From IMG/VR virus record IMGVR_UViG_3300037424_000495, positions 1-64,000 of that record: a DNA stretch of 64,000 nt. One strand, 5' to 3'. This document shows, in pieces, positions 14,238-50,510 of the stretch (the first letter of the stretch is position 1; every line of letters begins with the position of its first letter). The DNA is from a virus. Its lineage: Duplodnaviria > Heunggongvirae > Uroviricota > Caudoviricetes. The notes under the pieces are model-generated. The model had not been told where the DNA came from, did no database searches, and worked only from the letters and a program-made list of their open reading frames with translations. Both the position numbers and the translations under genes were made by a program.

Positions 14238-14265
14238 ATTAACTTCATTTATAAAGGAACATCTA

Positions 14266-16344: not shown

Positions 16345-16797
16345 TTAAGCAGCTTTGCGGATTTTCCGTTTGGCGTTTTTTGTGGGTTTGCGAGATAGCT
16401 TACGGGCCATCTTCTTCTTGCTTCTGGGGACTGGCTCGTAGTTCGGCATGTCGTTTAACTCTGCCAGCAATACGCCTCGTTCAATCATCTCTTCGTAATG
16501 GATCAGAGCCATCGCATTGAACATGATAGCAGCCAGATGGTCTTCATCTTTTTTGCCTTGCTGGTATTTCATCAGGTGGCGTTTGAGAGACGCCACGCAC
16601 CGTGAGAAGGGCATTCCTTTCTCCCAGTTGCGTTCAGCGTATTTTCTAGCACCTAAGAGCAGCCAATGACCTTGACGTTCCTCGGCGAACGGTGAAATTA
16701 AATCAGGGCGAGGTTTATCGTCAGCCGTGTCGCGGATAGCTCGGTTCTCACCAAAAGATTGACGTTTACCATTATCAACCATACTGTATTTAGACAT
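16345..16797 (-). CDS. dATP/dGTP diphosphohydrolase N-terminal-domain-like phage protein
   Basis: Pattern ARKYAERNWEKGMPFSRCVASLKRHLMKYQQGKKDEDHLAAIMFNAMAL recalls the phage dATP/dGTP pyrophosphohydrolase domain; recalled from memory, not searched. Confidence 0.45.
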   Translation of the reverse strand: MSKYSMVDNGKRQSFGENRAIRDTADDKPRPDLISPFAEERQGHWLLLGARKYAERNWEKGMPFSRCVASLKRHLMKYQQGKKDEDHLAAIMFNAMALIHYEEMIERGVLLAELNDMPNYEPVPRSKKKMARKLSRKPTKNAKRKIRKAA

Positions 16798-31686: not shown

Positions 31687-31691
31687 TTGTA

Positions 31692-32534
31692 ATGGTAATG
31701 AATCTTGAACCAATTCCACAATACTCCGCGTACCCGTTGCCGGTAAGCAGCGTTTATTATGACTCGGATTTTAATTGCCGGGCTGAGTTCACGATGCAAT
31801 CGGTTAAGGATTTAGCGGACAGTGTCGCGGAGAATGGTCTTCAGTTTCCTCTTGTCGTGCAACCCTGGAAAAAGCAGTCTGGTTATAGCTATCGTCTACT
31901 CGCAGGTCACAGACGGTTCAAGGCGTTGACAGTCTTTTTACATTGGGACACCGTGCCGAGTATCATTCGTAAAAGACTCACTGACCATCAAGCCCGTTTA
32001 ATAAATGTTACCGAGAATCTGGAACGCAAGGATTTGAATATCTGGGAAGAGGCGCGTGCTTTGGAACGACTCTACCCTAAAGGCGTGACGTTGCGACAGG
32101 CGTCGAAGGAACTGAAACAATCAACAGATTGGGTGTTTGTTCGTTTACGGTTGCTGCGTATGCCGCCTGAAGTGCAACAGAAAGCAGCGGCCGGTTTATT
32201 GTCTCAAACAAATTTAAACGCGATAGCGGGTTTAAAAAAACCGGAAGATCAAATTCTAGCCGCCGGTAAGATTGCTGCAGCGAGAATTGCTGGGAAAGGG
32301 AAGCGGCTCCCAGGCGTCGAAAGAGTGTTTAAACGCCGCACCGCCACGGTGCGTTCTAAGGAAGAAATCAATCGGATGGTTGAACGAATGTTGTCAGCCG
32401 GCATCGATGGATTGGCTCCACGGGTTGGGGTGTGGTGTGCTGGCAACATATCAGATGAAGATTTATGGGCAGACGTTGAAAGTGCTCCAAAATTTCATCC
32501 GCCTATTGATCCAACTGTAGAGGAAGAAACATGA
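31692..32534 (+). CDS. ParB-like nuclease domain protein (second copy)
   Basis: YRLLAGHRRFKALTV ParB N-terminal motif. Confidence 0.6.
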   Translation: MVMNLEPIPQYSAYPLPVSSVYYDSDFNCRAEFTMQSVKDLADSVAENGLQFPLVVQPWKKQSGYSYRLLAGHRRFKALTVFLHWDTVPSIIRKRLTDHQARLINVTENLERKDLNIWEEARALERLYPKGVTLRQASKELKQSTDWVFVRLRLLRMPPEVQQKAAAGLLSQTNLNAIAGLKKPEDQILAAGKIAAARIAGKGKRLPGVERVFKRRTATVRSKEEINRMVERMLSAGIDGLAPRVGVWCAGNISDEDLWADVESAPKFHPPIDPTVEEET

Positions 32535-32929: not shown

Positions 32930-35578
32930 ATGAGTCTTTATCCTCCAAAATTATATTTAGATACAGAGACCTGCGGGCTGCATAGCATGATGGTACTTTT
33001 GCAGTACGCTTTGGAAGACGGTGACATTGTCTTACATGACGTGTGGTTACGACCTGTTAAAGAAACCTTATCGCTTATTGAATGGATTTGTAAGCATACT
33101 GTTGTCGGTTTCAATCTTGCATTTGACTGGTTTCATATCTGTAAAATCTACACTGTTTTCAGTTTGTGTGATCCCGATTGGATTCCTATCGAACACATAG
33201 ACGAAATCGCTTTATTGGAGCCAAAGGGACAAGATGGGCCGTGTATAAAACCGGCTGCTTCTCTTGATTTGATGCTCCACTCTCGAAAAGGCCCCTTTCA
33301 ATCACTCATGGCGCGGGACGACATTCGCATTAAGCGGGTGCCGACCGCGTTGGCCTATGCGCTGGCTGAAGAATTGGAAAGCCGAGTGCATTTGGACGAC
33401 ATCTATTTTGCCAAGTCAGCGGACCCGGATGCACCTCGGTGGCAAGTTTTTGACCGCAAGGATAGATGGGGCGACATTGATACTGACTTTAAAGATGTTG
33501 TTCTTCGTTTCAATCCTGCCGGCGGTTTGAAATTTTTAGCTGAGCATGTTCTGGGTTATAAGCCTAAATTTCATTTCAAGGATGTTGAACCTCCTACGTC
33601 TTGGCGGCCATACGAATTGGGTTATGCACCTACGGCTTTAGCTGTGTCCACACCTGAAAAGAATTGGGAAGTCTGGGGCGTCAAAAAGGGGAAGCCAAAG
33701 TTTCTAGATGAAGCCACCAGTGATCTCAGTGCTGATATGGTTGATGACCATGATGATGACCGCATTACGAAAGTTGATCCTGAGTCTAAATTATTGGGTG
33801 TAGCGTGGCCAGCCGTAATTCGCAAGCATGTTGAACACTGGGCAAATTCCCAAAATGCACGGGAATACGCCAATGATGATATTGTCTACACGCGGGGGTT
33901 GGATAAGCATTTCGGCAGCCCGGAGCCGAACGATGATGACTCCGTTTTGGCGTGCATGGTGCCGGCTGTACGTTGGCACGGCTTCAAGATTGACCGTGAA
34001 GGCGTCATAGAATTATTACGCAAAGCCTATAAAGTAGTTCTCGACAGTCCAGTTAACATCAATAAACCAGGTGACGTTCGTGCTTATGTGACAGCGGCAA
34101 TGGACGATGTTGAGGCGGTCATTCTGGAAGAATCGACAAAGAAAAGCAATCTGGAAGCGATTCTCGATTGGGAAATTCTTGCTGATGAACCATGTAGTAA
34201 GTGTCACGGCAACGATCCGAAATGTGCGCGTTGCGGTGGTACAGGCATCTTGAAGGTAGGTAAACATCCGGCAGCCCTTCGTGCGAAGGAAATTCTCAAT
34301 GTGAAGTTCGCTGCGAAAGAGGTAGAGTTATACAACAAATTGCTTATGGCGGGTAAGTTTCACGCCAGTTTTGTTGTGATTGGTGCATTGTCCTCGCGTA
34401 TGTCCGGGGCTGATGGCTTGAATCCCCAGGGCATCAAGCACACAAAAGAAGTTCGTTGCATGTTCCCGTTGGCGTGGGAAGGGACAGTTCTGTGTGGAGG
34501 TGACTTCGATTCGTTTGAGGTTACGTTAGCGGACGCTGTTTACAACGATCCGGCCTTGCGACGTGAGTTATTGAGTAAAGTACCGTGCCATAAATGCGGT
34601 TTGACTGGGTGGCAGGCGTGCAAGAAATGCTCGAAGAAGCATAAGCGTCCACATCCTGACTGCCCGGAATGCGGTAAAGGACAACTCGGCCCGTGCGAAG
34701 AGTGTGAGGGGACAACTTGGACCCGCAAGAAAATCCATGCTTTATTCGGGACTGCTTTGTCCGGTTTGACATACAACGAGGTCATGGCTTCGTCTGGCAC
34801 TGACGCCGATTGGTATGATAAGGGTAAACGCGGTGTATTCGCCATGATTTATGGTGGCGATTGGAATACTTTGGTTCAAAAGTTAGGCGTTACACCCGAA
34901 CGTGCTAAAGCGGCTTACGATAAATTCTGCTCTGATTATCCTGGCGTGTTCAAGGCGCGGCAAAAGACGTTTAATGCGTTCTGCTCAATGAAGCAACCGG
35001 CTGGCCTTGGTTCTGCCGTCGTCTGGGAAGACCCTGTAGACTATGCAATTACGTTCTTAGGATTTAAGCGGTACTTTACGCTTGAAAACAAGATTTGCAA
35101 GGCATTGTTTGATTTAGCCCGCAACATTCCCAAACATTGGAAAGCTTGCAAGGTTAAAGTCGTTCGGCGCGATCGTGTTCAAACAGCCGGCGGGGCGGTT
35201 GCGTCCGCTCTTTACGGGGCAGCGTTTCAGATGCAAGCGGCAAACATGCGTGCGGCAGCGAACCATGAAATTCAATCGCCCGGTGCTCAAATTACAAAGC
35301 GTGTACAACGTCGAGTTTGGGACTTGCAACCAGTCGGTATCCATCCGTTACAAATTGCCATTCTCAATGTCCACGATGAACTTATGACTGTAGCCGCTCC
35401 GCTTCTTGTTACAAGCATCACGGAGGTGGTTCGTGAATCCGTGGAATCATTCCGACCGCAAGTGCCACTGATCGGCATGACATGGTTCGAGGGGATGGAT
35501 AACTGGGCTGAGAAGAAGGGGGGAGCAACGCCGGTAAGGATTCGCTCGAAAGAAATGGAAATGGCAGTTTCAATATAA
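32930..35578 (+). CDS. family A DNA polymerase with N-terminal 3'-5' exonuclease domain and zinc-finger insertions
   Basis: Exo I YLDTETCGL; Pol A motif B KRGVFAMIYGG and motif C NVHDELM; Cys clusters CSKCHGNDPKCARCGGTG and CHKCGLTGWQACKKC...CPECGKGQLGPCEEC. Confidence 0.75.
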   Translation: MSLYPPKLYLDTETCGLHSMMVLLQYALEDGDIVLHDVWLRPVKETLSLIEWICKHTVVGFNLAFDWFHICKIYTVFSLCDPDWIPIEHIDEIALLEPKGQDGPCIKPAASLDLMLHSRKGPFQSLMARDDIRIKRVPTALAYALAEELESRVHLDDIYFAKSADPDAPRWQVFDRKDRWGDIDTDFKDVVLRFNPAGGLKFLAEHVLGYKPKFHFKDVEPPTSWRPYELGYAPTALAVSTPEKNWEVWGVKKGKPKFLDEATSDLSADMVDDHDDDRITKVDPESKLLGVAWPAVIRKHVEHWANSQNAREYANDDIVYTRGLDKHFGSPEPNDDDSVLACMVPAVRWHGFKIDREGVIELLRKAYKVVLDSPVNINKPGDVRAYVTAAMDDVEAVILEESTKKSNLEAILDWEILADEPCSKCHGNDPKCARCGGTGILKVGKHPAALRAKEILNVKFAAKEVELYNKLLMAGKFHASFVVIGALSSRMSGADGLNPQGIKHTKEVRCMFPLAWEGTVLCGGDFDSFEVTLADAVYNDPALRRELLSKVPCHKCGLTGWQACKKCSKKHKRPHPDCPECGKGQLGPCEECEGTTWTRKKIHALFGTALSGLTYNEVMASSGTDADWYDKGKRGVFAMIYGGDWNTLVQKLGVTPERAKAAYDKFCSDYPGVFKARQKTFNAFCSMKQPAGLGSAVVWEDPVDYAITFLGFKRYFTLENKICKALFDLARNIPKHWKACKVKVVRRDRVQTAGGAVASALYGAAFQMQAANMRAAANHEIQSPGAQITKRVQRRVWDLQPVGIHPLQIAILNVHDELMTVAAPLLVTSITEVVRESVESFRPQVPLIGMTWFEGMDNWAEKKGGATPVRIRSKEMEMAVSI

Positions 35579-35610: not shown

Positions 35611-36000
35611 ATGGGAAACTGGAATATCACTATACAAGGGATTGGTAGTCACGGTAACGGTAAACCTGAAATCGACGCTGATTTATTGGCTGTGGATTTT
35701 GTGAATTATCTACAGTCAAGGGGCCAAATAATAGAATCGGCTAGTTTTACCTGTGGTGGAAAAGTCGATTTGATTGAAAAGAGTGGGCGTGTGAAAATAC
35801 TGGTCAACGGCGTTTCTTATAAATCTCTACATACAGTGTCTTATGAAGAGGTAAAGAAACTAGCAGGATTCATTGCCCCAGTCGTTACTATAACATTCCG
35901 AAAAGCAAAGTTTGAAAACGCAGGGATTCTTGGACTGGGGCAATCTATCAAAGTCATCGATGGAACAATCTTTGACGTGGCTGATACAAGTAATGTTTAA
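35611..36000 (+). CDS. hypothetical protein
   Basis: ORF in track with GAGG-containing RBS. Confidence 0.5.
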   Translation: MGNWNITIQGIGSHGNGKPEIDADLLAVDFVNYLQSRGQIIESASFTCGGKVDLIEKSGRVKILVNGVSYKSLHTVSYEEVKKLAGFIAPVVTITFRKAKFENAGILGLGQSIKVIDGTIFDVADTSNV

Positions 36001-36017: not shown

Positions 36018-36986
36018 GTGTCAACTATGGTAAGCAACAATGTGGATATACATACCCTCAGCCTGTGCTCCGGCGGTGCCGGACTCGATCTTGGACTTGA
36101 ATTGGCTCTCGGAGCAGTTCGCACAGTCTGTTGGGTGGAGTGGGAAGCCTTCGCCATCGAGTACCTGGCGTCGGCGATGCAAGCGGGTTGCTTGGCTCAA
36201 GCGCCTATTTGGACGAATTTGCGAACCTTCGACGGCCGCCCGTGGCGTGGCGTCGTGGATTGCATCACTGCAGGGTATCCTTGCCAACCGTTCAGTTTGG
36301 CCGGTAAGCGTCGTGGACAAGCTGACCCAAGACATCTATGGCCACATGTCTGTAGAGTCATTGAAGAAGTTGAACCAACACTCGTATTTCTCGAAAACGT
36401 GCCCGGCCATCTCACCCTTGGATTCGATGAGGTCGCCCGAGACCTTGAAAGTTTGGATTACAAAGTTGCGGCGGGTCTCTTTACAGCGGAGGAAGTTGGC
36501 GCAAGCCACAAACGAGAACGATTGTTTACCCTTGGCGTGGCCATCACCTCGCACAATTACTGGAGGAGCAGAATCGGCTCAACGGAAGAAAGAATTGGGC
36601 AGGTTGAATGCGGGCGGCGGGGATTTGCAGGCGGCAGTAATCAATTGGCCGACGCCCACGGCGCGAGATTGGAAGGACGGAGCGTGCGAGAATGCAAATG
36701 TCCCGGACAATGGATTATTGGGTCGAGTAGTAGTGCGACAGCACACACACACACACACAACTATTCCCACCAAGACCCAATGAACTCGATAAATGGTCTC
36801 AAGTGCTCAAAGAAAACCCGTGCCTCAGCCCCGCGATTGAATCCGGTGTTTGTGGACTGGTTGATGGGTTGGCCCGAACTGAATGGCTTCGACTTCTCGG
36901 CAACGGAGTGGTCCCGTTACAAGCAGCGTATGCGTTCTGCTCTTTGTGGGCTTCTATCCGAGGTGAGTAATGGGAAAGATTCGTAA
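36018..36986 (+). CDS. DNA (cytosine-5)-methyltransferase, frame-disrupted; candidate phase-variable gene or pseudogene
   Basis: Frame 0 has motif I LSLCSGGAGLDLG, motif IV GYPCQPFSLAG, motif VI FLENV, motif VIII HKRERLFTLGV. TRD-like WPSPRTITGG / NWPTPTARDWKDG repeats are in frame +1 (track ORF 36040-36783). Motif IX FVDWLMGWP is back in frame 0, and an LLGNGVVPLQAAYAF motif X-like stretch is in frame +2. Confidence 0.55.
   Translation: MSTMVSNNVDIHTLSLCSGGAGLDLGLELALGAVRTVCWVEWEAFAIEYLASAMQAGCLAQAPIWTNLRTFDGRPWRGVVDCITAGYPCQPFSLAGKRRGQADPRHLWPHVCRVIEEVEPTLVFLENVPGHLTLGFDEVARDLESLDYKVAAGLFTAEEVGASHKRERLFTLGVAITSHNYWRSRIGSTEERIGQVECGRRGFAGGSNQLADAHGARLEGRSVRECKCPGQWIIGSSSSATAHTHTHNYSHQDPMNSINGLKCSKKTRASAPRLNPVFVDWLMGWPELNGFDFSATEWSRYKQRMRSALCGLLSEVSNGKDS
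36742..36757 (+). repeat. (CA)8 dinucleotide microsatellite inside the C5-MTase gene at a frame junction
   Basis: GCACACACACACACACAACT, read as HTHTH / HTHTHT in the two frames. Confidence 0.8.
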
Positions 36987-37013
36987 ACCGCGCCTTGCGA
37001 AGGTGGTAGGCTG

Positions 37014-37421
37014 ATGGCAAGAATCAAACGACCAAAACACGGCCCCGAGTGGTTCATTCAAAGAGACTTGATCGCCCTTCTCAAGGCCCGTGGGTGGCAT
37101 GTCGAACGGACGCATGGCAATTTGTATCAGACAGGTTTCCCTGACTTGTATGTAATGCACAAGAAATGGGGAACTCGGTGGATCGACTGCAAACAACCAA
37201 AATACTATTCGTTTACGAAGGCTCAGAGGATCAAATGGCCACTGTGGGAGGCGATGGGCACTCCAATCTGGATTCTTACTGCTGCGACTCAGGAAGAGTA
37301 TGACAAGTTGATGGGGCCTCCGAACTGGCGAGATTACGTGAAGGATAGTTGGAAGATTCCAACTCAAGATGAGATCGACAAACTACTTGATGAGATAGAT
37401 GCCGGCGACGACTTCTTATAA
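37014..37421 (+). CDS. VRR-NUC domain nuclease
   Basis: Pattern EWFIQRDLIALLKARGWHVERTH...GFPDLYVMHKK...WIDCKQ matches the VRR-NUC PD-(D/E)xK layout. Confidence 0.65.
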   Translation: MARIKRPKHGPEWFIQRDLIALLKARGWHVERTHGNLYQTGFPDLYVMHKKWGTRWIDCKQPKYYSFTKAQRIKWPLWEAMGTPIWILTAATQEEYDKLMGPPNWRDYVKDSWKIPTQDEIDKLLDEIDAGDDFL

Positions 37422-37911
37422 CAAGAATCCAGACCATTACCGCGCTAAGTCGCGGGAGTATTATGCTGCGCATCGTAAAGAACGATTGGCTTATGCCAGA
37501 CGCTATCAGAAAGCCAACAAGAAACTTTTACGTGAGAAAAGCCGTGTTTACCGTGAAGCCAATCGTGACATAATAAATGCGAAACAGCGTGCTTATCGAG
37601 AGAGCAATCTTGAAAAGCGGCGTGCGTATTCACGCGAATACGGGCGTGCCCATCCACGGCGGGCACGTAATTATGGGTTGTGGTATCGACACGGGCTGTC
37701 CGTAGCTGATTATCGTGCCTTGCTTAAGAGGCAGAAACATTGTTGTGCCGTGTGCGGAAAGAAACCTCGCAAATATGTGGTTGATCATGACCATAAGACT
37801 GGGAAGATTCGTGGTCTGCTGTGTAGCTTTTGCAATTCGCTGCTGGGATTTGCAAAGGATAACCGCAGTGTCTTGAAAGCAGCCATCCACTATTTAAGCA
37901 AAACTGGCTGA
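37399..37911 (+). CDS. HNH endonuclease, recombination endonuclease VII-like
   Basis: CAVCGKKPRKYVVDHDHKTGKIRGLLCSFCNSLLG signature; basic N-terminus with repeats. Confidence 0.75.
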   Translation: MPATTSYNKNPDHYRAKSREYYAAHRKERLAYARRYQKANKKLLREKSRVYREANRDIINAKQRAYRESNLEKRRAYSREYGRAHPRRARNYGLWYRHGLSVADYRALLKRQKHCCAVCGKKPRKYVVDHDHKTGKIRGLLCSFCNSLLGFAKDNRSVLKAAIHYLSKTG

Positions 37912-37963
37912 GTACCCGTCTCCAACTTGCTATCAAGCGCTAACCGGCTAGGAGTCTGCGCCC

Positions 37964-38455
37964 ATGCTATTTCAACAACGTCCCGAACCGTGGATGTGTA
38001 TGCCATTAGCGTTCGCAATGGCATTGGACATGCCTGTTGCTGAATTGCTTGCGGAGATCGGCCACGATGGCGGCAAGATTTTATTTCCCAATCTGCCGGC
38101 TGAAGCCTGTCGTCAAGGATTTCATATCCAAGAATTTATTCATGTAGCTATGCAACGTGGATTCGCTGTGACGCCGGTTGAATTGTATCCCGTTTTAATG
38201 GCAGCCGATGGGCGACAGACTCACACAATTCTTTATCCAGATAGCAACTGGAAGCGTTTTACAGACCACCTTGCTACTAGTCGGGGCGTGATTGACGGAA
38301 TTGGTCGTCGTTTCGGTCACATGGTCGCCTATGACCACGGCCACATCTTTGATCCTAGAGGCTATGAGTATGCCTACTCGCGCATCGCGTGTGAGGCACA
38401 CCATTTTTACAGCCGTTGTCTTTGGCGTATTGACGCAGTAGGAGTAAATCAATGA
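37964..38455 (+). CDS. hypothetical protein
   Basis: ORF in track. Confidence 0.45.
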   Translation: MLFQQRPEPWMCMPLAFAMALDMPVAELLAEIGHDGGKILFPNLPAEACRQGFHIQEFIHVAMQRGFAVTPVELYPVLMAADGRQTHTILYPDSNWKRFTDHLATSRGVIDGIGRRFGHMVAYDHGHIFDPRGYEYAYSRIACEAHHFYSRCLWRIDAVGVNQ

Positions 38456-39162
38456 ATCAATATAGCAATTCGCAACTAATTGCGGAGATGAAGCAAAATG
38501 ACTCCCTCAATCGAGAAGACAATGACACATTGTTTGAATTGGTTAAGGCCGGCGATACTGCTGCTCGCGAACGAATGATTACAGGCAACATGTATCTTGT
38601 TGTAGATAAGGTTGATTGTTTTCTTCGACGCCATCCACATGCTACACATCTGCGAGATGACTTGACTAGCGCAGGTTTCATCGGACTTCTACAGGCCGTT
38701 AACGCGATTAGTGGCGGCAATGTCGCGAAAACAAATATTACTGGGTATCTTGCCGTGGGGATTGGTCGTGAAATGAGTGAGTTGATGGATCAAGAAAATG
38801 TAATCTTTATAAGTGCCGGCCAGCGTCGCTATGCACGCGAGCACGGTTACGAGTTAGAAATTCCAAAGGTGCAAACATTGCCCTCTGATAAAGATAAACA
38901 TTACGATCCGAATGACGACGGACAATTAGCTGACAATGAAACTTTGCCGGTCGGCAGTGATTTTGGTTACTATCCATTCGGAGCGACAGAAGTGCGTGAT
39001 TTACTAGACGCCTGCTGTCAAACACATGAAGAACGTGAATTTATGTGGTTGCGTGAGGCAGGTTACACGTTTAAAGAGATTTCGGGAAAATTAAAGATGC
39101 CTGTGGCATCTGTCCACGCAATTAAAACACGACTCTATCAAAGATTCTTGCGAAAATCTTAA
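38452..39162 (+). CDS. sigma-70 family (ECF-like) RNA polymerase sigma factor
   Basis: Region 2-like NMYLVVDKVDCFLRRHP and C-terminal region 4 HTH YTFKEISGKLKMPVASVHAIKTRLYQRF. Confidence 0.55.
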   Translation: MNQYSNSQLIAEMKQNDSLNREDNDTLFELVKAGDTAARERMITGNMYLVVDKVDCFLRRHPHATHLRDDLTSAGFIGLLQAVNAISGGNVAKTNITGYLAVGIGREMSELMDQENVIFISAGQRRYAREHGYELEIPKVQTLPSDKDKHYDPNDDGQLADNETLPVGSDFGYYPFGATEVRDLLDACCQTHEEREFMWLREAGYTFKEISGKLKMPVASVHAIKTRLYQRFLRKS

Positions 39163-39241
39163 ATTAGCACTCCAATAATATTCCCTTCCAGTGATTCAAC
39201 TTTAGAAAACAAAGTATGCAATCATTCACTGGATGTAACAA

Positions 39242-40396
39242 ATGGCAAAATCCCTAAAACGTGAATTCCTACAACTGGCGGATCATTATAAGACGGACAA
39301 ATCAAACGTCGCCGGTTGGTTCATATCTGAAAAATTGGACGGCACACGTTGTTTTTGGGACGGTGGAGTGAGTCGGGGAGTCCCCACTGAAGAGGTGCCG
39401 TGGGCATCGATCATTGACCCAAAAACTGGTAAGCGTAAGGCTAAGATCAAACCAGTGGCCACCGGCTTGTGGAGTCGCTATGGGAATCCGATTATCGCAC
39501 CTGACGAATTCCTAAATCTATTGCCGTGTTGTCCTTTGGATGGTGAGTTGTGGGCCGGACGTGGAAATTTTCAGCTTTGTCGGAGTATCTGTGGCGGCGA
39601 TACGCCTGATCCACGCTTCATGGAGCATATTGTTTACGCTGTCTACAGCAGCCCGCCATTGGCATCGATTTTTGCTACTGGCGAAATTGCCAATGCCAAT
39701 ATGGTTTGTTCAATTGATTACATCGCATGTGAGCATTGGCTCAATCAACGACTCAGTGCAAAATCCGAGAAAAATGCCGCCGTACCTGTCCCACGTCATT
39801 GTTTGCGTGACGATTATCGCTATCTGCCGCCAGATAGACCCTTCTCGGAAGAAGTGCGTTTCTTAGCTGAAAATCTTGACAACGGTCCTGAATCAAAGTG
39901 TTACCTACATCAGCAAACCAAACTGATTGACATCCCCGAGGAAGCTGCTGGTCAAGTGGAAGCCTTTTTACAAAAGGTTTTGGATCGCGGCGGCGAAGGG
40001 GTTGTAATTCGCAATCCAGACGCATTGTGGACTCCGAAGCGACATAAGGGCATCCTCAAATATAAGCCATATCAGGACTGTGAAGTCTCTGTCACTGGGT
40101 TTACTTCCGGCCGTGAGACTGATAAAGGCAGCAAGCATCTTGGTCGCATCGGCGCATTGATAACCGACTACAAAGGAAAGCGCCTCGAAATATCTGGACT
40201 AACAGATATCGAACGTGAATTTGCATCTGGGGAAATGGGCGTCTTTGCATCTGCGAATCCCGGCGTGGACATGCCAACTTGGTTTCAAGGTCGGCGTTTT
40301 AAAACCGGCGATACCATAAGCATTCTCTTCAGAGAATTAAGCGACGATGGTATCCCGAAAGAGGCAAGGTATTTTCGTCAGCGAGACGTGGAGTAA
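39242..40396 (+). CDS. ATP-dependent DNA ligase
   Basis: Motif I SEKLDGTRCFW (KxDG), motif IV GEGVVIRNP, motif V LKYKPY. Confidence 0.75.
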   Translation: MAKSLKREFLQLADHYKTDKSNVAGWFISEKLDGTRCFWDGGVSRGVPTEEVPWASIIDPKTGKRKAKIKPVATGLWSRYGNPIIAPDEFLNLLPCCPLDGELWAGRGNFQLCRSICGGDTPDPRFMEHIVYAVYSSPPLASIFATGEIANANMVCSIDYIACEHWLNQRLSAKSEKNAAVPVPRHCLRDDYRYLPPDRPFSEEVRFLAENLDNGPESKCYLHQQTKLIDIPEEAAGQVEAFLQKVLDRGGEGVVIRNPDALWTPKRHKGILKYKPYQDCEVSVTGFTSGRETDKGSKHLGRIGALITDYKGKRLEISGLTDIEREFASGEMGVFASANPGVDMPTWFQGRRFKTGDTISILFRELSDDGIPKEARYFRQRDVE

Positions 40397-40399
40397 ACC

Positions 40400-40588
40400 A
40401 TGAGATTCGGTAAACCAACCCGCCGCCCTAGTGACGGTGAAGAACGTATCTTCCGGCATTTTCTTTGGCTACCAGTAACTATTGGCGGTGAAACACGTTG
40501 GCTAGAGACGGCTGATATCAATTATCGTTATGAACGCAGTGGCTACGTTGGCGATGAGTGGGTGCCAATACGTTTTATCAATCACTAG
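40400..40588 (+). CDS. small hypothetical protein
   Basis: ORF in track. Confidence 0.3.
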   Translation: MRFGKPTRRPSDGEERIFRHFLWLPVTIGGETRWLETADINYRYERSGYVGDEWVPIRFINH

Positions 40589-40596
40589 GAATTAAC

Positions 40597-40872
40597 ATGC
40601 GAATACTGATATCAAAGATTCAACGCTGGTTGCGTTTATTCCGCCGTCGAAGTAATATGACATTGACCATCCCGCTAGCGGATAGATGGCTGGCTCAAGC
40701 CATTCTCAATTGTCTTTATTGTTGGCACAGGCAGCATGGCCCCGGGGTGTGGATTGTAACCAAAGAAGACATTGATCAATTAGAAGAAATGACTCGTTGG
40801 CTCTACGCTCAACATGAGGACACTCGTCGATTTGCGTTCTGGCAGCGTTATCGAATTAAATACCGGCAATAA
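40597..40872 (+). CDS. hypothetical protein
   Basis: Internal ATG of track ORF 40558-40872. Confidence 0.4.
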   Translation: MRILISKIQRWLRLFRRRSNMTLTIPLADRWLAQAILNCLYCWHRQHGPGVWIVTKEDIDQLEEMTRWLYAQHEDTRRFAFWQRYRIKYRQ

Positions 40873-40896
40873 CTAAACCACAAAGGAAACTAACTT

Positions 40897-41490
40897 ATGC
40901 GAACCTTGCTGTGTACCGCGATTATTGTTTTACTTTTTACAAGTATATCATGCGAATCACCCAAGAACGATCTTGTATGTCCGCCAGGACCACATTATCA
41001 GGCACCCGAGACGCCTCGATTGATGCTCTTGGATGAATTCCTCAAAATAAAAACTCGCTGCTTTCGCACAGGAGGTAGCGACAGTGTATTAAATACAATC
41101 GCCGAAGAAGGGGCAACTCTGCAAGCCATTGCACAACAATGTAGTCATGCAGGTTGGGATGCCAGACTGACGAAACTTGCTACAGCATACCCAGGCTGGG
41201 TGTTTCGCGAAGTTGTTTGTGACGCTGTAAGCGGGTTGTGTCATTTCGACTCCGCTAAAGATATTGCCACGAGTCTGCAGACTAACACTTCTAATTGGTC
41301 CGTTTTGAATGCCTCATGTGACGCCTGGGGACTGACGATGGTGAAAGGCAAGAATGATACCTACTACGCCTGCATCATCCTGGGTTACAAAAACAACAAT
41401 TTCAATGACAGGTACACGCCTGCAGAGGTGCCTAATCTTATCGACCAATATCGGCAAAACTATTGGCCGCATGGGGTGCCTAAACACTAA
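40897..41490 (+). CDS. putative lipoprotein
   Basis: Signal peptide MRTLLCTAIIVLLFTSISC with lipobox-like ISC. Confidence 0.5.
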   Translation: MRTLLCTAIIVLLFTSISCESPKNDLVCPPGPHYQAPETPRLMLLDEFLKIKTRCFRTGGSDSVLNTIAEEGATLQAIAQQCSHAGWDARLTKLATAYPGWVFREVVCDAVSGLCHFDSAKDIATSLQTNTSNWSVLNASCDAWGLTMVKGKNDTYYACIILGYKNNNFNDRYTPAEVPNLIDQYRQNYWPHGVPKH

Positions 41491-41492
41491 TA

Positions 41493-42404
41493 ATGTCCTC
41501 AACTATTTCAAGTCTGACTAATCGCGGACTAATAAGTCCACCGACATGGCTGCCTGATAACATCGTCTTCGAGGGTGTGCAAGGAAGCAATGCCTACGGT
41601 GTGGCAGTTGACACGTCCGACTTTGATATTATTGGCTTCTGTATTCCGCCGAAAGATTTGATCTTCCCGCATCTTGCAGGCGAGATTGAAGGTTTTGGAC
41701 GCCAAAAGAAACGCTTTGTCTGCTACCAGAAGCACCATGTTCGCGACCAGCAAGCACAGAATGGAGCCGGGCGTGAATATGATTTCAACGTCTACAACAT
41801 TGTCCACTATTTTAATCTGGCAATGCAGAATAATCCAAATATGCTAGCCAGCTTGTTTCTACCGGCCGATTGCATTCTTTTCACAACTCGAATCGGTGAG
41901 ATGATTCGCGACAAGAGGCATATCTTCTTACATAAAGGTGCATGGCACCGTTTCAAAGGCTATGCCTACAGTCAATTGTCTGAAATGGGTAAGAAACCCG
42001 ACTCTGGTAGCAAGCGGGAAGCCCTGGTGCAAAAGTTCGGTTTCGACGTAAAATTTGCGTATCATCTTGTCCGCTTAATGTTCGAGATAGAACAAATCTT
42101 AACTACCGGCGACCTCGATCTGCGAAGAAACGCAGAAGAACTAAAAGCGATTCGTCGTGGTGAGATACCCGAATCAGAGATTCGGAACTTTTTCGCCGAT
42201 AAAGAAAAGTTTCTCGAAGGTTTGTACGAGAAATCAAATCTGCCTTGGGGACCGCGTGAGGCAGAGATCAAGCAATTGCTCTTGGACTGTTTGGAAGAAC
42301 ATTATGGCAGCCTTGAAGATTGTGTCGTGACCGAAGCTGATCCGTTAAGAGCATTGCGTGAGATTGCGTCCATTGTCGATGACAACCGGCATCTGTTGAG
42401 GTAA
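41493..42404 (+). CDS. Pol-beta superfamily nucleotidyltransferase (RlaP/YcgL-like)
   Basis: GSNAYGVAVDTSDFDIIGF (GS..G......SDxD) nucleotidyltransferase motif. Confidence 0.55.
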   Translation: MSSTISSLTNRGLISPPTWLPDNIVFEGVQGSNAYGVAVDTSDFDIIGFCIPPKDLIFPHLAGEIEGFGRQKKRFVCYQKHHVRDQQAQNGAGREYDFNVYNIVHYFNLAMQNNPNMLASLFLPADCILFTTRIGEMIRDKRHIFLHKGAWHRFKGYAYSQLSEMGKKPDSGSKREALVQKFGFDVKFAYHLVRLMFEIEQILTTGDLDLRRNAEELKAIRRGEIPESEIRNFFADKEKFLEGLYEKSNLPWGPREAEIKQLLLDCLEEHYGSLEDCVVTEADPLRALREIASIVDDNRHLLR

Positions 42405-42407
42405 GGA

Positions 42408-42824
42408 ATGGCGCAGAGATTCAGGATTGGTTTGGGTCGAAACGACGATGAGACTTTCACGTTCGACGTAGTTCTCTACAAGAATCATCGTCAACTTCAA
42501 CGGTCTTATCGTCATTGTGCCAAGCAGGATCGCGGTGCCGAACCGAAGCGGACACGTATCGGTGCGTTCACCACTGAGTATTACTGGTCAAAGCATTCGC
42601 AAGAAATTGGGTCCATTCGATTTTCGACAGAACATCTGACTGAGAAGTTTATTGTCCACGAATCTACACACGCAGCATTGCATCTTGCCAGGTACATGGA
42701 CAAATATGCCGGTGGATTCAGGAGTAAACGTGCCCGCGAGGAGTTGGTGGCGATAGCCACGGATGTGATCTACATCGAGATTTGTCAGCACGTAAGAAAA
42801 CGAAAACTGAAGATAGGGCGGTGA
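42408..42824 (+). CDS. hypothetical protein
   Basis: ORF in track, immediately downstream of the NTase. Confidence 0.45.
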   Translation: MAQRFRIGLGRNDDETFTFDVVLYKNHRQLQRSYRHCAKQDRGAEPKRTRIGAFTTEYYWSKHSQEIGSIRFSTEHLTEKFIVHESTHAALHLARYMDKYAGGFRSKRAREELVAIATDVIYIEICQHVRKRKLKIGR

Positions 42825-42825
42825 A

Positions 42826-42996
42826 ATGATTATGACCGACTACACCAATGAAACATCAGAGCAATTGTTAACTGAATTAGTGCGCCTACGGCAAGAGATT
42901 CGATTGTGTCAAAGGCCAGTTGACCAGAAATGCAAGGACGCAGAGGTAATTTATGGCGTTTTGATGCAACGTGGTATCGATCCTGATTCACACTGA
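42826..42996 (+). CDS. small hypothetical protein (56 aa)
   Basis: MIMTDYTNETSEQLLTELVRLRQEIRLCQRP...; below the ORF-track cutoff; preferred over the antisense track ORF 42830-43204. Confidence 0.35.
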   Translation: MIMTDYTNETSEQLLTELVRLRQEIRLCQRPVDQKCKDAEVIYGVLMQRGIDPDSH

Positions 42997-42997
42997 A

Positions 42998-43531
42998 ATG
43001 ACTCGATCTACCCTCATCTATGAAGCGGAATTGTTTGCGCGTGAAGCACATGCGAGGCAGGTTCGTAAATACACGGGGATGCCATATATCGTCCACCCGA
43101 TGAACGTGGCCAAAATCGTGTCCGAAGTCACCGACGATCCAGTCACAATTGCCGTGGCATGGTTGCACGATACCGTGGAAGACACGAGTGTCACATTCGC
43201 CCAAATCGGAACACTGTTTGGCCGGGAAGTCGCTGACTTAGTGGCAGACGTGACGAACATCACGAAGAAGACAGACGGCAACCGCGCGTTTCGTAAGGCA
43301 TTGGAGCGGACCCATCTGGCGATGGCAGCCCCGAAAGCGAAAACTGTCAAGTTGGCGGACATGTTGGACAACATTCCCAGCACAGTGCAGTACGATCCAG
43401 GCTTCGCAGTTACTTACGTGGACGAGAAACGCCGGCTGCTGGGCTACCTACGCGCAGGCAATCGCACGCTTTGGGATCGTGCAGTGCGACTCATCGAACA
43501 GAGCACTGAACTTTTGAGGAGGAAGACATGA
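42998..43531 (+). CDS. HD-domain (p)ppGpp hydrolase, small alarmone hydrolase SpoT/Mesh1-like
   Basis: HARQVRKYTGMPYIVHP...AVAWLHDTVEDT...FGREVADLVADVT matches the RelA/SpoT HD hydrolase signature. Confidence 0.7.
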   Translation: MTRSTLIYEAELFAREAHARQVRKYTGMPYIVHPMNVAKIVSEVTDDPVTIAVAWLHDTVEDTSVTFAQIGTLFGREVADLVADVTNITKKTDGNRAFRKALERTHLAMAAPKAKTVKLADMLDNIPSTVQYDPGFAVTYVDEKRRLLGYLRAGNRTLWDRAVRLIEQSTELLRRKT

Positions 43532-43708
43532 ATTTAACCCGCGAGAAACTACTGGAATTGATTCGACGTTGGAATTATGCGAGTGAGGTAGATCACCGTA
43601 TCAAAGAATTGAATCAATACGGTAGTGCTGCCAGTGGCTCCCAACAGGTAATCGACGCCGCACTCGACGATGTGCTTGAAATTCTTAACGAAAGGCCAGT
43701 GCAATGAC
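43529..43708 (+). CDS. small hypothetical protein (59 aa)
   Basis: GAGGAGG RBS; ATGA overlap with the upstream stop. Confidence 0.4.
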
Positions 43709-43717
43709 TATTTCAAG

Positions 43718-44092
43718 TCACTCCCGGCGCTTCGCGAGTATAGGGACACCTTCGGAGAGAAGCCGGTCTAATTCCGTCCGGGGTATTTTCCAGCGACCAC
43801 TTGAATCCTTGACACCTTTGATATCGCCCTGAATGCACAGTTGGCGGATAGTCCAAGCAGACCGACTAAGATAAACGCCGGCTGCGGCTGCATTCAAGTA
43901 GACAGCCCTCGGTTTAGGCACATCACTTACATGCGAGAGGATTGTGTCATTTAACTGTTCAACATGTTTAATATGTTGCATCTGTTCAAGAAGAACATTG
44001 TTAAAAGTGTCATAAACAGTGTCACGCACAGTGTCACGAATAATTTGTCTTAATAAATCGTCAATAGTTTGTGTAGTCATATTAGCCTCCAT
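43718..44092 (-). CDS. excisionase/AlpA-like HTH DNA-binding protein
   Basis: RAVYLNAAAAGVYLSRSAWTIRQLCIQGDIKGVKDSSGRWKIPRTELDRLL helix-turn-helix (Xis family); the lone minus-strand gene in a + strand block. Confidence 0.6.
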   Translation of the reverse strand: MEANMTTQTIDDLLRQIIRDTVRDTVYDTFNNVLLEQMQHIKHVEQLNDTILSHVSDVPKPRAVYLNAAAAGVYLSRSAWTIRQLCIQGDIKGVKDSSGRWKIPRTELDRLLSEGVPILAKRRE

Positions 44093-44163
44093 GTCATTTA
44101 TTGTAATCGCTTCCTAAATTCTGTAAAGCTAAATTCTGAGAGCGTTTAAACGCGCTGCATAAC

Positions 44164-44892
44164 ATGACAAAAAGAAATCCAAAACAAGACGGCAGTAATT
44201 TATTCGATTGTATACCGCAGATCGGCCCCTGTCCAATCGGCTGCAACGCTTGCTTCTACAACCGGCCCGGTGCATTCTATCTCCCAATCGATCAACCCAG
44301 CATCCCAACGTCTGAGGAAGTAGGTGATGGAATTGTGCGAATGAATTGCGGCAACGATAGCAATAATCAACGCGATCTTGTAATTGAGACTGCTAAGCAA
44401 TACAAGCACGCTTTCTTCAACACCAGTATTCCACGTTTTGACTTTCCTGGCCCTGTCGTTTGGACCGCAAATCCTTGTGAGGAGCAATATGTGCGCATCC
44501 CGCCTGCATTGCAATGCGAGATTCCCAGCAACTTGATGTTTATTCGTTTGCGAGTATCAAGCACAAATCTTTTTCGCATTAAGTTGGCTGCCGAATGGTT
44601 CAACGCAAAACAAGTGCCAGTTGTCTTAACATTCATGGCTTATTATGAGACGGAGCCAATGGTGCCAACTGACGTACTCACCGCTGTCGGTGGACCGTGC
44701 TACGAATGGAAAGTACGTCACATCAATTCATATTTCTGTCCTACCCCTGCGTTCATTCGGTATGTCATGAGTCTCTTTAAAGGCAACCGCCTTGTATCAT
44801 ACTGTGGCAGCCTCGAAGGATCATACTGCCGACTGTGTCTAAACTGCGAAACATATTACCACCAGGCAGTTAAACGAATGAAGGGCGAGTAA
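44164..44892 (+). CDS. hypothetical protein
   Basis: ORF in track. Confidence 0.45.
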   Translation: MTKRNPKQDGSNLFDCIPQIGPCPIGCNACFYNRPGAFYLPIDQPSIPTSEEVGDGIVRMNCGNDSNNQRDLVIETAKQYKHAFFNTSIPRFDFPGPVVWTANPCEEQYVRIPPALQCEIPSNLMFIRLRVSSTNLFRIKLAAEWFNAKQVPVVLTFMAYYETEPMVPTDVLTAVGGPCYEWKVRHINSYFCPTPAFIRYVMSLFKGNRLVSYCGSLEGSYCRLCLNCETYYHQAVKRMKGE

Positions 44893-45415: not shown

Positions 45416-46120
45416 ATGTATAAATATCTTTTGATTCTCTGTTTGGTATTTATTGGCTGCCAAGAGCCAGCGAAACCTAAGTCGCCACAGCCCGATCCAC
45501 TGCGAACCTTGCAGACAGATATACGACACATTGCGCACGTCCGCCCGAGCGGTAGTGCCGCAAATCAGCAAGTGGCCAATTATCTTGCTCGCGAGTTGCA
45601 AAAATCCGGCTTCCAAGTTACACGTCAACCTTTTAATAAAGGTACGAACATTGTCGGTATTCGCCGTGGATCTTCAGCCCGGACTATCATTATTGGCAGC
45701 CATTATGATAGCGTGAACTGTCCAGGAGCCGACGATAACGCTTCCGGTTGTGCTGTAAATCTACTTGTTGCTCGGCAGCTTATAAAGCAGAAACTCAATC
45801 ACACATTGACTATTATCTTCTTTGACGCTGAAGAAATTGGACTTGTTGGATCAAATTACTACGCCAAGTCGATGACAGCAAAATGCGACTTGATGATTAA
45901 CCTCGACATGGTAGGCAATCTTCATGTCTCAAGTACACCGGACGCCATATTCAACGACCTCTACCGTAAATATCCGTGGGCACGCAACATTTCTTTTAGA
46001 ACCGGCGACGCTCCAAGCGACCACACACACCGTTCAATGCGAAAGGCATTCCCGTCGTCTGGGTCTTTACTGGCACACATCCTCGTTACCATGAATCAAC
46101 AGATGTGCCTTCAAGTTTAA
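45416..46120 (+). CDS. M28-family zinc aminopeptidase lipoprotein
   Basis: Lipobox LVFIGC; M28 motifs IIGSHYDS, GADDNASG, FFDAEEIGLVGS, NLDMVG. Confidence 0.7.
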   Translation: MYKYLLILCLVFIGCQEPAKPKSPQPDPLRTLQTDIRHIAHVRPSGSAANQQVANYLARELQKSGFQVTRQPFNKGTNIVGIRRGSSARTIIIGSHYDSVNCPGADDNASGCAVNLLVARQLIKQKLNHTLTIIFFDAEEIGLVGSNYYAKSMTAKCDLMINLDMVGNLHVSSTPDAIFNDLYRKYPWARNISFRTGDAPSDHTHRSMRKAFPSSGSLLAHILVTMNQQMCLQV

Positions 46121-48020: not shown

Positions 48021-48668
48021 ATGTCAGAAGTCACAATCACCGTTGAACGTATTGAGGCCATTAAACCGCATCCAAATGCGGACAAAATGGAAATTGCCGA
48101 AGTAGCCGGCACTCAAACCCTTGTTGGCAAAGACCAATTTAAGGTTGGTGATTTAGCAGTCTATTTTCCACCTGACATTTTAATCCCCGGAGAAGTCTCC
48201 GAGGCTCTAGGTGTCGCAAAATATCTCAAGACCGCTCTCTATGGCGGCTTGCGTGTGCCTTGTCGCGTGGCGGCTTGCCGACTACGTGGCGTGCCGAGCT
48301 ATGGCTTTGCTCAACCGTTGACGGTTTTGGGAACTGTTGATCTACGCCAGATTCATGTCGGCAAAGATGTAACTGAAACCTTTCGTGGCCTCAAGTACGA
48401 GCCAGTGGTTAAGGTTCAGCGTGGGCACGGTGGCGGCACAGGTGAAGTCTGGGGTGGCTTGGCTCCCGAACCAATTAACTTCCACCGTTACACTGACATT
48501 CAGCATTACCGCAAATACAGGCATTTGCTTGCGACAGAGACGCCAGTGCGCATAACCGAAAAAGTACACGGTTGCCTAATGTTCCAGGAACGTATCACAA
48601 TGGTAGACGGGTCCAAGAAAAAGATTGGACACACGTCCGCATTGGTGATTTTGTTCTTGGGGTTGTGA
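48021..48668 (+). CDS. RNA ligase N-terminal segment: tRNA-binding (Myf/EMAP-like) domain, motif I lysine, start of intein
   Basis: IKPHPNADKMEIAEV...VGDLAVYFPPD tRNA-binding fold; EKVHG (ligase motif I) followed by intein block A CLMFQERITMVDGSKKKI; ORF stops shortly after an A5 run. Confidence 0.6.
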   Translation: MSEVTITVERIEAIKPHPNADKMEIAEVAGTQTLVGKDQFKVGDLAVYFPPDILIPGEVSEALGVAKYLKTALYGGLRVPCRVAACRLRGVPSYGFAQPLTVLGTVDLRQIHVGKDVTETFRGLKYEPVVKVQRGHGGGTGEVWGGLAPEPINFHRYTDIQHYRKYRHLLATETPVRITEKVHGCLMFQERITMVDGSKKKIGHTSALVILFLGL

Positions 48669-49639
48669 ATGGACAAGTCGTTCCGAGCCAAGTATTAAAC
48701 GTCTTTAATAACGGTCGCAGCGACCGCTGGCTCAAGGTGACATTCACACGGCGACTTGCGGGTCGGGGCGGCAACAATGTTGGCACAATACATTGCACAC
48801 CGAATCACTGCTTCTGGACGCCGGATAAAAATGACTACACACCAGCCAGTGAGTTGCGTGTTGGAAATCTCGTCAATTTACTTCGCTCTGACACCGATCT
48901 AACCCCAGTCCAGCACGCTATCTTGCCACCGACCGCAACACATTACAAGCCGCTTCTAGTCTCGCAGCGTGTTGTCGCTATTGAAGAATACATTGCTCCA
49001 CGAGCAAACCGCTATGACATTGAAACCGAAACACATAATTACTTCGCTAATGGTGTTTTGACTCACAATTCTAATTCGCGCGTGGGGCTTCTGAAAGTTG
49101 ATGGCGAATGGCAATTTGTTGCCGGCTCCCATAAGACTGCCCGCAAGCAGATTGATCCTGAAGGGCGAGAATCCGTGTACTGGTCTCCACTTCAGGATTT
49201 TAATGTGTTGCGGATGCTTACCGATATGTGCAATGAAGCCAACGATATTATTCTATTCGGTGAGTTATACGGTCCTGGAGTTCAAGACTTAGACTATGGG
49301 ATTCCTGCCGGTGACATTGGTTGGCGGATGTTTGATATCACTGCGAATGGAGAATACTTGGACTGGGGTCTCATTGCATTCTTATCCATGCACTACGATG
49401 TGCCCACTGTTCCGCTGCTTTATTCAGGTCCATTCAAACGGGAGTTGATCGACGAATTGACTTGTGGCCCGACGACTGTCGTCTCGGGGACCGAGATCAA
49501 ATCCAAATTCAAAGGTCGTGAAGGGATCGTCATTACACCATTGGTAGAAGAGACATGCAGCATTGGCCGTCTAATTCTAAAGTCTGTCAGCGCGGATTAT
49601 TTAGACAGGAAGGGAGCAGAAGACAATGGTGACATCTAA
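48572..49639 (+). CDS. remainder of the mini-intein plus the RNA ligase nucleotidyltransferase domain (Rnl2-like), in the -1 frame relative to the upstream segment
   Basis: Intein block B TPNHCFWT and C-terminal YDIETETHNYFANGVLTHN|S; extein motifs ILFGELYG (III), GWRMFDI (IV), KGREGIVIT (V), LILKSVSADY (VI). Confidence 0.6.
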   Translation: MPNVPGTYHNGRRVQEKDWTHVRIGDFVLGVVNGQVVPSQVLNVFNNGRSDRWLKVTFTRRLAGRGGNNVGTIHCTPNHCFWTPDKNDYTPASELRVGNLVNLLRSDTDLTPVQHAILPPTATHYKPLLVSQRVVAIEEYIAPRANRYDIETETHNYFANGVLTHNSNSRVGLLKVDGEWQFVAGSHKTARKQIDPEGRESVYWSPLQDFNVLRMLTDMCNEANDIILFGELYGPGVQDLDYGIPAGDIGWRMFDITANGEYLDWGLIAFLSMHYDVPTVPLLYSGPFKRELIDELTCGPTTVVSGTEIKSKFKGREGIVITPLVEETCSIGRLILKSVSADYLDRKGAEDNGDI

Positions 49640-50510
49640 CACGTGCTTAACATCTGACGATCAATTGTTCACAAAAAATCGAAGCCGTGAAGCTCCATCT
49701 TTTGCAAATATCAATCTTCTCGGCCGATGTAATGTAGACTGTTATTTCTGCCTGGGAAAAGATATCCCAGACTTGCTTGCGCCTCATAACCAATTGACAA
49801 CACACTTTTTGCAGTGGAATAATTGGCTGGATTTCCTGATAACGTGCCAGCAACACAACATTCGTAAGCTGTATGTCACCGGCCAGAACACCGACAGTTT
49901 ACAGTATCGGTATCTTGCAGAATTGATTAACTATTTGCACAGGTATGGCTTCCAAGTCGGACTGCGAACAAATGGCTACTTGGCATTGAAGCAAATGGCG
50001 GCCATAAACCAATGCGACTTATCGGTTGGCTACTCAATTCATACGCTCAAGCCAGATATAAACTTTCAGTTGATGAAACACCGCCGGCTACCAGAATGGC
50101 AAACTATTTTGGAAAAGACAAAGCGGCCACGAGTACAAATTGTTGTTACAAGACACAATGCTTCCGAAGTATTTGACATTATTAAATGGCTGTCACAATT
50201 TCCACATCTACGTTATGTACAAGTGCGGCGTGTCAGCAGCGACACTCGGCGTGAGGAATTAGCGCCCGACGCATTGGCTTATGATACGTTACTCTCGCAG
50301 GTACAGGATTTGTATCCACGAGAAAGTGTTCTATGGGGCACAGCAAGCATTTATCGAATACATGGGCTGCCAGTATGCTTCTGGCAAACAACAGCCACAA
50401 GTATCAACAGTTTCAACTACTTTACAGACGGCACTATCAGCCGTGAGTATTTTATTGTTGAAGGCTATAAGAAAGCCTTGCAAGGAGCCAAGTGTGACAC
50501 CAAAGTCTAA
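49626..50510 (+). CDS. radical SAM enzyme
   Basis: CNVDCYFC (CxxxCxxC) cluster-binding motif near the N-terminus. Confidence 0.65.
   Translation: MVTSNTCLTSDDQLFTKNRSREAPSFANINLLGRCNVDCYFCLGKDIPDLLAPHNQLTTHFLQWNNWLDFLITCQQHNIRKLYVTGQNTDSLQYRYLAELINYLHRYGFQVGLRTNGYLALKQMAAINQCDLSVGYSIHTLKPDINFQLMKHRRLPEWQTILEKTKRPRVQIVVTRHNASEVFDIIKWLSQFPHLRYVQVRRVSSDTRREELAPDALAYDTLLSQVQDLYPRESVLWGTASIYRIHGLPVCFWQTTATSINSFNYFTDGTISREYFIVEGYKKALQGAKCDTKV

Follow-up and report, generated by a model that had tools for sequence, protein, structure and literature searches.

A predicted PaSpo-like stand-alone RelA/SpoT-type HD hydrolase encoded by a tailed phage

A 64,000-nt stretch of tailed-phage DNA (positions 1 to 64,000 of IMG/VR record IMGVR_UViG_3300037424_000495; the whole stretch is referred to as the window) encodes a 177-aa protein of the RelA/SpoT hydrolase family, with an intact active site and the fold of the small alarmone hydrolases (SAHs). 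As judged from its sequence, its structural model and analogy with characterized enzymes, the protein is very probably a catalytically competent, stand-alone RelA/SpoT-homologue (RSH) hydrolase of the PaSpo-like type, borne by a tailed phage, that would remove what host RSH enzymes make. The predicted chemistry at the level of the enzyme, removal of a 3'-pyrophosphate, is well supported by sequence and model; we infer the activity, substrate range and biological role from tested relatives.

Gene, fold and active site

The gene and the codons of its functional residues, the latter placed by alignment with human MESH1, are as follows:

42998..43531 (+), including the stop codon: SAH gene, single-domain RelA/SpoT-type HD hydrolase, predicted to be PaSpo-like (ORF, 177 aa)
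43064..43069 (+): codons R23-K24, equivalent to MESH1 R24-K25, presumed nucleotide/phosphate binding
43094..43096 (+): codon H33, equivalent to MESH1 H35, presumed first metal-binding histidine
43166..43171 (+): codons H57-D58, equivalent to MESH1 H61-D62, presumed HD metal-binding dyad
43178..43183 (+): codons E61-D62, equivalent to MESH1 E65-D66, presumed catalytic ED dyad
43271..43297 (+): codons 92-100 (TDGNRAFRK), clade-specific basic motif DGNRxxRK
43358..43372 (+): codons D121..N125 (within KLADMLDN), equivalent to MESH1 D122 and N126, presumed fourth metal ligand and substrate-contact asparagine

The ORF runs on the + strand from an ATG at 42998 to a stop codon at 43529-43531. A sequence-only reading of this DNA had described a 177-aa ORF with HD signature motifs, and both motif strings are indeed present in its translation (EAHARQVRKYTGMPYIVHP, residues 16-34; WLHDTVEDT, residues 55-63). 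An alternative in-frame GTG at 42971 would lengthen the protein by 9 residues; the ATG is favoured because it lies 1 nt past the stop codon of the upstream 56-aa ORF and because homologues begin at the equivalent position. The stop codon of the gene and the start codon of the following ORF share nucleotides (ATGA). No Shine-Dalgarno-like sequence is found before the ATG of the SAH gene, so that its expression probably occurs via coupling to the upstream ORF. Two antisense ORFs lying within the gene, 42830-43204 (-) and 43018-43383 (-), are without support.

Profile searches match the protein to its family far beyond chance. Pfam HD_4 (PF13328) is matched with 66.4 bits (cutoff 27.2, E 3.2e-18), while the match to NCBIfam TIGR00691 (spoT_relA, E 1.9e-29) covers only positions 3-121 of the 687 in the model, i.e., its hydrolase end. 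In PHROGs the protein falls into phrog_990, 'metal-dependent phosphohydrolase' (E 2.2e-38). All 22 sequence matches in the PDB at E <= 0.01 are Rel/SpoT hydrolase domains or SAHs, among them Lmo0812, human and fly MESH1, RelH, Leptospira SAH, P. aeruginosa SAH and Aph1. The 177 residues constitute a single domain, with matches to HD_4/HD profiles only and no synthetase, TGS or ACT domain. An AlphaFold2 model built on a 64-sequence alignment (pLDDT 97.3, pTM 0.92) is all-helical and forms one domain. In Foldseek searches of the PDB it superposes over its full length on human MESH1 (TM 0.85-0.86, rmsd 2.2 Å, ~178 columns) and closely resembles P. aeruginosa SAH (TM 0.82-0.84); Drosophila Mesh1, C. 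glutamicum RelH and Leptospira SAH are other top matches, and the long Rel/SpoT enzymes match via their hydrolase domain only. Complexes of MESH1 with NADPH and with PAPS are among the best structural matches. Thus, profiles, intact catalytic residues and a fold matching MESH1 and SAHs uphold the RelA/SpoT-type HD hydrolase identity put forward from the letters alone, and the strong HD_4 and TIGR00691 matches come from the very HMM searches suggested there as a check.

In a MAFFT alignment with human MESH1 (reference sequence identical to PDB 3nr1), ten of ten functional residues are conserved: MESH1 R24, K25, Y32, H35, H61, D62, E65, D66, D122 and N126 correspond, in this order, to R23, K24, Y30, H33, H57, D58, E61, D62, D121 and N125 of the window SAH. 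The same ten positions are invariant in 64 of 64 aligned sequences and in 119 of 119 database relatives. The roles of these residues as metal ligands, catalytic dyad and substrate contacts are presumably those known from the RelSeq and MESH1 structures. The protein therefore has the metal-binding H...HD...D tetrad of the RSH hydrolase domain (H33, H57, D58, D121) and keeps the ED dyad (E61-D62) together with the substrate-contact residues R23, K24, Y30 and N125. The motif DGNRxxRK, within which G94, R96 and R99 are invariant in the clade, is common to the window SAH and SSU5 PaSpo and absent from PbcSpo; it might contribute to phosphate or RNA binding. The catalytic dyad is altered in the best homologue found in phage records, the TPWB-08 protein (PQ358087.1, L002:4998-5525; 46% identity), in which ED is changed to EA (A63); that homologue may be inactive or altered in activity.

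Subfamily and relatives

Comparison with one reference each for the PaSpo, PbcSpo and Mesh1 subfamilies places the protein nearest to PaSpo. The BLASTP match to PaSpo of Salmonella phage SSU5 extends over 160 aa (39% identity, 96 bits, E 5e-29), compared with 70 bits and 35% identity for MESH1 and with 49 bits over 81 aa for PbcSpo of Salmonella phage PVP-SE1, located as gp220. Each of the 119 relatives resembles SSU5 PaSpo more closely than it does the MESH1 or the PbcSpo reference, and a neighbour-joining tree contains a clade of the window SAH with SSU5 PaSpo, with MESH1 outside. The motif DGNR and a C-terminal motif, DPxFA..Y..EK, are found in the window SAH and SSU5 PaSpo, and MESH1 and PbcSpo lack both. 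The protein is thus probably PaSpo-like, an assignment drawn from bit scores, the distances of relatives and the tree rather than from the official subfamily HMMs. Two other affiliations were considered. Similarity to the Aph1-type (p)ppApp-specific hydrolase (PDB 7smg; 39.6 bits, TM 0.59-0.64) is weaker than that to MESH1 and other SAHs, which argues against an Aph1-type enzyme. The notion that PaSpo denotes the P. aeruginosa SAH was dropped: the prefix means proteobacteria/acidobacteria, the window SAH matches the P. aeruginosa sequence (6yvc) weakly, with 31 bits, and SSU5 PaSpo matches it just as weakly.

The nearest database relatives share 58-59% identity with the window SAH. An identical protein is recorded on a 75-kb Logan contig (the longest contig listed for the collection has 129 kb). 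The family is common among viruses: relatives were identified in 343 phage records, none of them reaching 60% identity, and in no fewer than 558 IMG/VR contigs. The closest relative (P0003, 58% identity, L008:8001-8510) is encoded on ENA contig k141_481665, which at 388 kb is of jumbo-phage size. Its gene lies near an RNA ligase gene and a Thg1-like gene, echoing the RNA-repair genes near the window SAH, although the pattern is not general in the 80 viral loci surveyed below.

The phage and the neighbourhood of the gene

The window holds 85 densely packed and mostly co-directional ORFs and no tRNAs. PHROGs assignments include a tape measure protein, primase, helicase, exonuclease, DNA polymerase and DNA methyltransferases; the first three and the polymerase corroborate the earlier statement that the SAH is phage-encoded. 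The 24 kb from 32000 to 56000 have no nucleotide match in 50,697 phage records, and a tblastn search of the same records with the 882-aa DNA polymerase gave no match at E 1e-5, which together indicate a lineage far from cultured phages. The polymerase, the co-directional run that contains the SAH gene and the gene that follows it are:

32930-35578 (+): DNA polymerase, 882 aa (phrog_17, E 3e-19)
40897-43707 (+): run of six co-directional ORFs including the SAH gene (gaps of 2, 3, 1, 1 and -4 nt)
40897-41490 (+): lipoprotein-like 197-aa ORF with a lipobox-like LFTSISC, no known function
41493-42404 (+): pol-beta/RlaP NTase, separated from the SAH gene by the HExxH gene and the 56-aa ORF (RlaP, E 3e-16; phrog_388, E 1.6e-45)
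42408-42824 (+): 138-aa protein with a HESTH (HExxH, zincin-like) motif (weak phrog_1365, E 7e-4)
42826-42996 (+): 56-aa ORF directly upstream of the SAH gene
43528..43707 (+): 59-aa ORF, the last of the run, its ATG overlapping the SAH stop codon
43718-44092 (-): convergent HTH gene after the cassette

The 138-aa HExxH protein, encoded between NTase and SAH in translational coupling, matches nothing in Pfam or PADLOC and no sequence in the PDB. PADLOC models return nothing meaningful on the cassette, and promoter and terminator scans of 36900-44400 stay at chance level (10 found against 10.8 and 7.2 expected). Farther neighbours comprise EndoVII, a DNA ligase, a C5 DNA methyltransferase, AAA_28, an M28 peptidase, an RNA ligase with an intein-like insert and radical-SAM proteins.

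Conservation of this setting was surveyed by tblastn, with 18 neighbour proteins from the window and from the locus of the closest relative against 80 IMG/VR SAH loci (1.1 Mb). EndoVII, RlaP, RNA ligase and Thg1 were each found in 1 of the 80 loci; the other 14 proteins, including the cassette genes apart from the NTase, were found in none. The SAH neighbourhoods of SSU5, TPWB-08 and Bas82 consist of unrelated small genes and have nothing in common with the window. A conserved SAH module, including a general linkage between SAH and RNA repair, is rejected, since each neighbour occurs in at most 1 of 80 loci. The lack of recurrent neighbours, the unrelated neighbours of the homologues and the 24 kb that separate the SAH gene (gp220) from the NTase gene (gp166) in PVP-SE1 indicate that the SAH gene behaves as a free-standing accessory gene. 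The suggestion that the neighbourhood is anti-defence-like holds in part: the NTase and the DNA methyltransferases are confirmed and fit it, but the nucleases (EndoVII, exonuclease) are ordinary replication/recombination enzymes, the remaining neighbours belong to nucleic-acid metabolism or have no known function, and none of them recurs beyond the single locus noted above.

The NTase belongs to a widespread group, with relatives in 719 phage records. It reads GSNAYGVAVDTSDFD, and NPNMLA follows 69 residues after the SDFD motif; each of the two is one mismatch away from the two-site phage NTase signature of a preprint (10.1101/2022.06.09.495361), whereas the homologous PVP-SE1 gp166 fits that signature exactly. 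According to the same preprint, phage NTases of that signature make competitor cyclic dinucleotides against TIR-STING and lie amid anti-defence genes, and Atd1, encoded beside such NTases, depletes (p)ppGpp and dampens abortive infection driven by TIR. The Atd1-NTase pairing is a plausible parallel, rather than evidence of function, for an SAH gene two genes downstream of a related NTase.

Several other genes of the window are noted here. Besides the SAH, the phage has a MazG-superfamily enzyme, a 150-aa protein at 16345-16797 (-) that matches PF18909 (MazZ-type dATP/dGTP diphosphohydrolase N-terminal domain, E 6e-20), a family associated with 2-aminoadenine (Z-genome) phages; the ORFs scanned include no PurZ-like gene. 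An RNA ligase at 48572-49639 (+) (PF09414, E 1.5e-13) carries the apparent intein-like insert, which scores 31.7 bits against Intein_splicing, below the cutoff of 35.8, and its end is overlapped by a radical-SAM gene (49626-50510). A 242-aa protein at 44164-44892 (+) without a family match contains CPIGCNAC (CxxxCxxC) near its N-terminus, a motif typical of radical-SAM iron-sulfur clusters. The M28-family metallopeptidase at 45416-46120 (+) (E 3e-27) has a lipoprotein-like N-terminus, MYKYLLILCLVFIGC; together with the lipobox ORF at 40897-41490 it constitutes unusual phage cargo. Two separate ParB_N + HTH_ParB proteins (19820-20731 (+) and 31638-32534 (+)), an SPFH/Band-7 protein (14206-14841) and a weak Multiubiquitin-domain match (35611-36000; 21.9 bits, below cutoff) complete the list.

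Predicted function and known systems

That phage SAHs can counter alarmone-type toxins, as the sequence-only reading had assumed, is already established by experiment: SSU5 PaSpo and PVP-SE1 PbcSpo neutralise five of five toxic alarmone synthetases (toxSAS) tested (Jimmy et al. 2020, PMC7229694). Four of those toxSAS families do not make alarmones; they pyrophosphorylate the tRNA CCA end, and MESH1 and ATfaRel restore the aminoacylation of pyrophosphorylated tRNA, in the case of MESH1 of tRNA modified by FaRel2, consistent with removal of the 3'-pyrophosphate (Kurata et al.). SSU5 PaSpo is thus active against (pp)pApp-producing as well as tRNA-pyrophosphorylating toxSAS. SSU5 PaSpo was likewise reported to remove the FaRel2-installed tRNA modification (PMC11245113). 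CapRel is a toxSAS that acts in antiphage defence, and SSU5 PaSpo detoxifies it during purification (PMC9712102). MESH1 hydrolyses (p)ppGpp. Based on the published activities of SSU5 PaSpo, MESH1 and ATfaRel, Mn2+-dependent removal of a 3'-pyrophosphate is the most likely mechanism of the window SAH. Residues H33, H57, D58 and D121 would hold the Mn2+ ion, the E61-D62 dyad would activate a water molecule, and R23, K24, Y30 and N125 would position the nucleotide, so that pyrophosphate is cut off the ribose 3'-OH. By analogy with SSU5 PaSpo, likely substrates are (p)ppGpp, (p)ppApp and 3'-pyrophosphorylated tRNA CCA ends, although the substrate range may differ from that of SSU5 PaSpo, given 39% identity. 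During infection the enzyme would probably erase the products of host RelA/SpoT-family proteins, i.e., the alarmones of the stringent response and the output of toxSAS such as CapRel; with these alarmones and tRNA marks gone, the phage could continue to rely on translation and transcription.

Two narrower readings differ from this explanation in emphasis only, and both are compatible with the data. The enzyme could serve metabolic takeover alone, degrading host (p)ppGpp so as to forestall or undo a stringent response provoked by infection, with no dedicated role against defence systems; we regard this as possible, though doubtful, and the same holds for its detail that rRNA, ribosome and nucleotide synthesis would be kept high. 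Takeover is what is usually proposed for phage SAHs at the level of annotation (PMC12846349), the active site is the same as in the (p)ppGpp hydrolases MESH1, Rel and SpoT, and the stringent response can restrict phages, which counter it by other means (PMC13483052). The sequence, however, holds nothing that would separate takeover from the main explanation, and the nearest tested enzyme, SSU5 PaSpo, also neutralises toxSAS that make no alarmone, so that one would not by default expect the activity to be confined to (p)ppGpp. Dedicated repair of tRNA 3' ends, with the CCA ends pyrophosphorylated by CapRel, PhRel or FaRel2 as the main substrate and the SAH as part of a phage RNA-repair toolkit, is an unlikely emphasis. 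SAHs do take off the tRNA 3'-pyrophosphate (Kurata et al.; PMC11245113). An RlaP-family NTase lies two genes upstream of the window SAH and an RNA ligase 5 kb downstream, the gene of the closest relative is 0.8 kb from an RNA ligase gene and 6.4 kb from the Thg1-like gene, and the basic motif DGNRxxRK could contact RNA. Yet RlaP, RNA ligase and Thg1 showed the scarcity described above in a tblastn survey of limited sensitivity, the SAH has no RNA-binding domain, and RNA ligases are frequent in large phages anyway.

Three further readings change the role more substantially. The SAH may belong to a translationally coupled cassette, formed by the six-ORF run and directed against abortive infection, in which the NTase would supply decoy cyclic dinucleotides and the SAH would take an Atd1-like role, removing (p)ppGpp and/or the tRNA 3'-pyrophosphate so that a shutdown triggered by TIR/NADase or by toxSAS could not be completed; this is rather improbable. 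If true, the Atd1 function would have a second solution, based on the HD fold and with a physical link to the NTase. A main substrate other than alarmones, such as NADPH, PAPS, another ribose-phosphorylated metabolite or a defence signalling nucleotide, is suggested by the MESH1-NADPH and MESH1-PAPS complexes among the best structural matches and by the documented promiscuity of SAHs (PMC9765508), MESH1 also acting on NADPH and binding PAPS; it is very unlikely, since the window SAH clusters with PaSpo and not with Mesh1, and the tested PaSpo member acts on products of RSH toxins. Lastly, some SAHs are antitoxins encoded beside toxSAS genes, which can also occur in phages (PMC7229694), but an antitoxin role within a phage-borne toxSAS module, like that of ATfaRel with FaRel, would be most surprising here: Pfam searches of the flanking genes and of about 40 ORFs of the window give no RelA_SpoT synthetase match, PADLOC is empty, and the homologues of SSU5, TPWB-08 and Bas82 are annotated without a toxSAS partner. 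A toxSAS-SAH module of the FaRel/ATfaRel type, which would place a synthetase next to the SAH gene, is essentially excluded within the window on the same Pfam and PADLOC evidence.

The preferred reading, an RSH hydrolase that erases host RSH products, extends a class already shown to neutralise toxic alarmone synthetases (SSU5, PVP-SE1) by a further divergent phage SAH, which comes from an uncultured lineage and has at most 59% identity to database relatives; no concept is changed. The importance of phage SAHs stems from the part that toxSAS such as CapRel play in antiphage defence and from the ability of the stringent response to restrict phages. In practice, the enzyme could serve in comparisons of substrate range or to detoxify toxSAS while they are being expressed. 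The close association of its gene with that of a pol-beta NTase, a mildly new angle, is the sole feature that might repay experiment.

Among known systems, the hydrolase domain of the long RSH enzymes (Rel, SpoT) is homologous to the window SAH and has the same catalytic motifs, but these enzymes also contain synthetase, TGS and ACT domains; their absence from the window SAH suggests that it lacks ribosome- or partner-dependent regulation and is presumably constitutively active. Atd1, a phage MazG-like (p)ppGpp pyrophosphatase, resembles it in function only: the window SAH has the HD fold and not the all-alpha MazG NTP pyrophosphohydrolase fold. The stand-alone HD hydrolases P. aeruginosa SAH (6yvc), C. 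glutamicum RelH (7qod) and Leptospira SAH (7qoe) share its fold (TM 0.79-0.84). Together with C. marina ATfaRel, these bacterial SAHs hydrolyse (p)ppGpp and/or (p)ppApp; they differ in being chromosomal and in sharing only 23-28% identity with the phage protein in structural alignment, and ATfaRel differs further in belonging to a toxin-antitoxin operon. Human and Drosophila MESH1 (PDB 3nr1, 5vxa, 3nqw) have the same length and fold, but they are eukaryotic members of the Mesh1 subfamily without the DGNR and DPxFA motifs, and MESH1 is reported to be a physiological NADPH phosphatase. PbcSpo of PVP-SE1 (gp220) is also a phage-encoded SAH; it belongs to another subfamily, aligns over only 81 aa and has D at the position equivalent to R23. 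SSU5 PaSpo (SSU5_099) differs in its length of 213 aa, with an extra insertion and a C-terminal tail, and in its host lineage. Like the window SAH, it is phage-encoded, consists of a single HD_4 domain with the same catalytic residues and the clade motifs RKYTG.PY, DGNR and DPxFA..Y..EK, and its gene lies among small accessory genes without a toxSAS partner.
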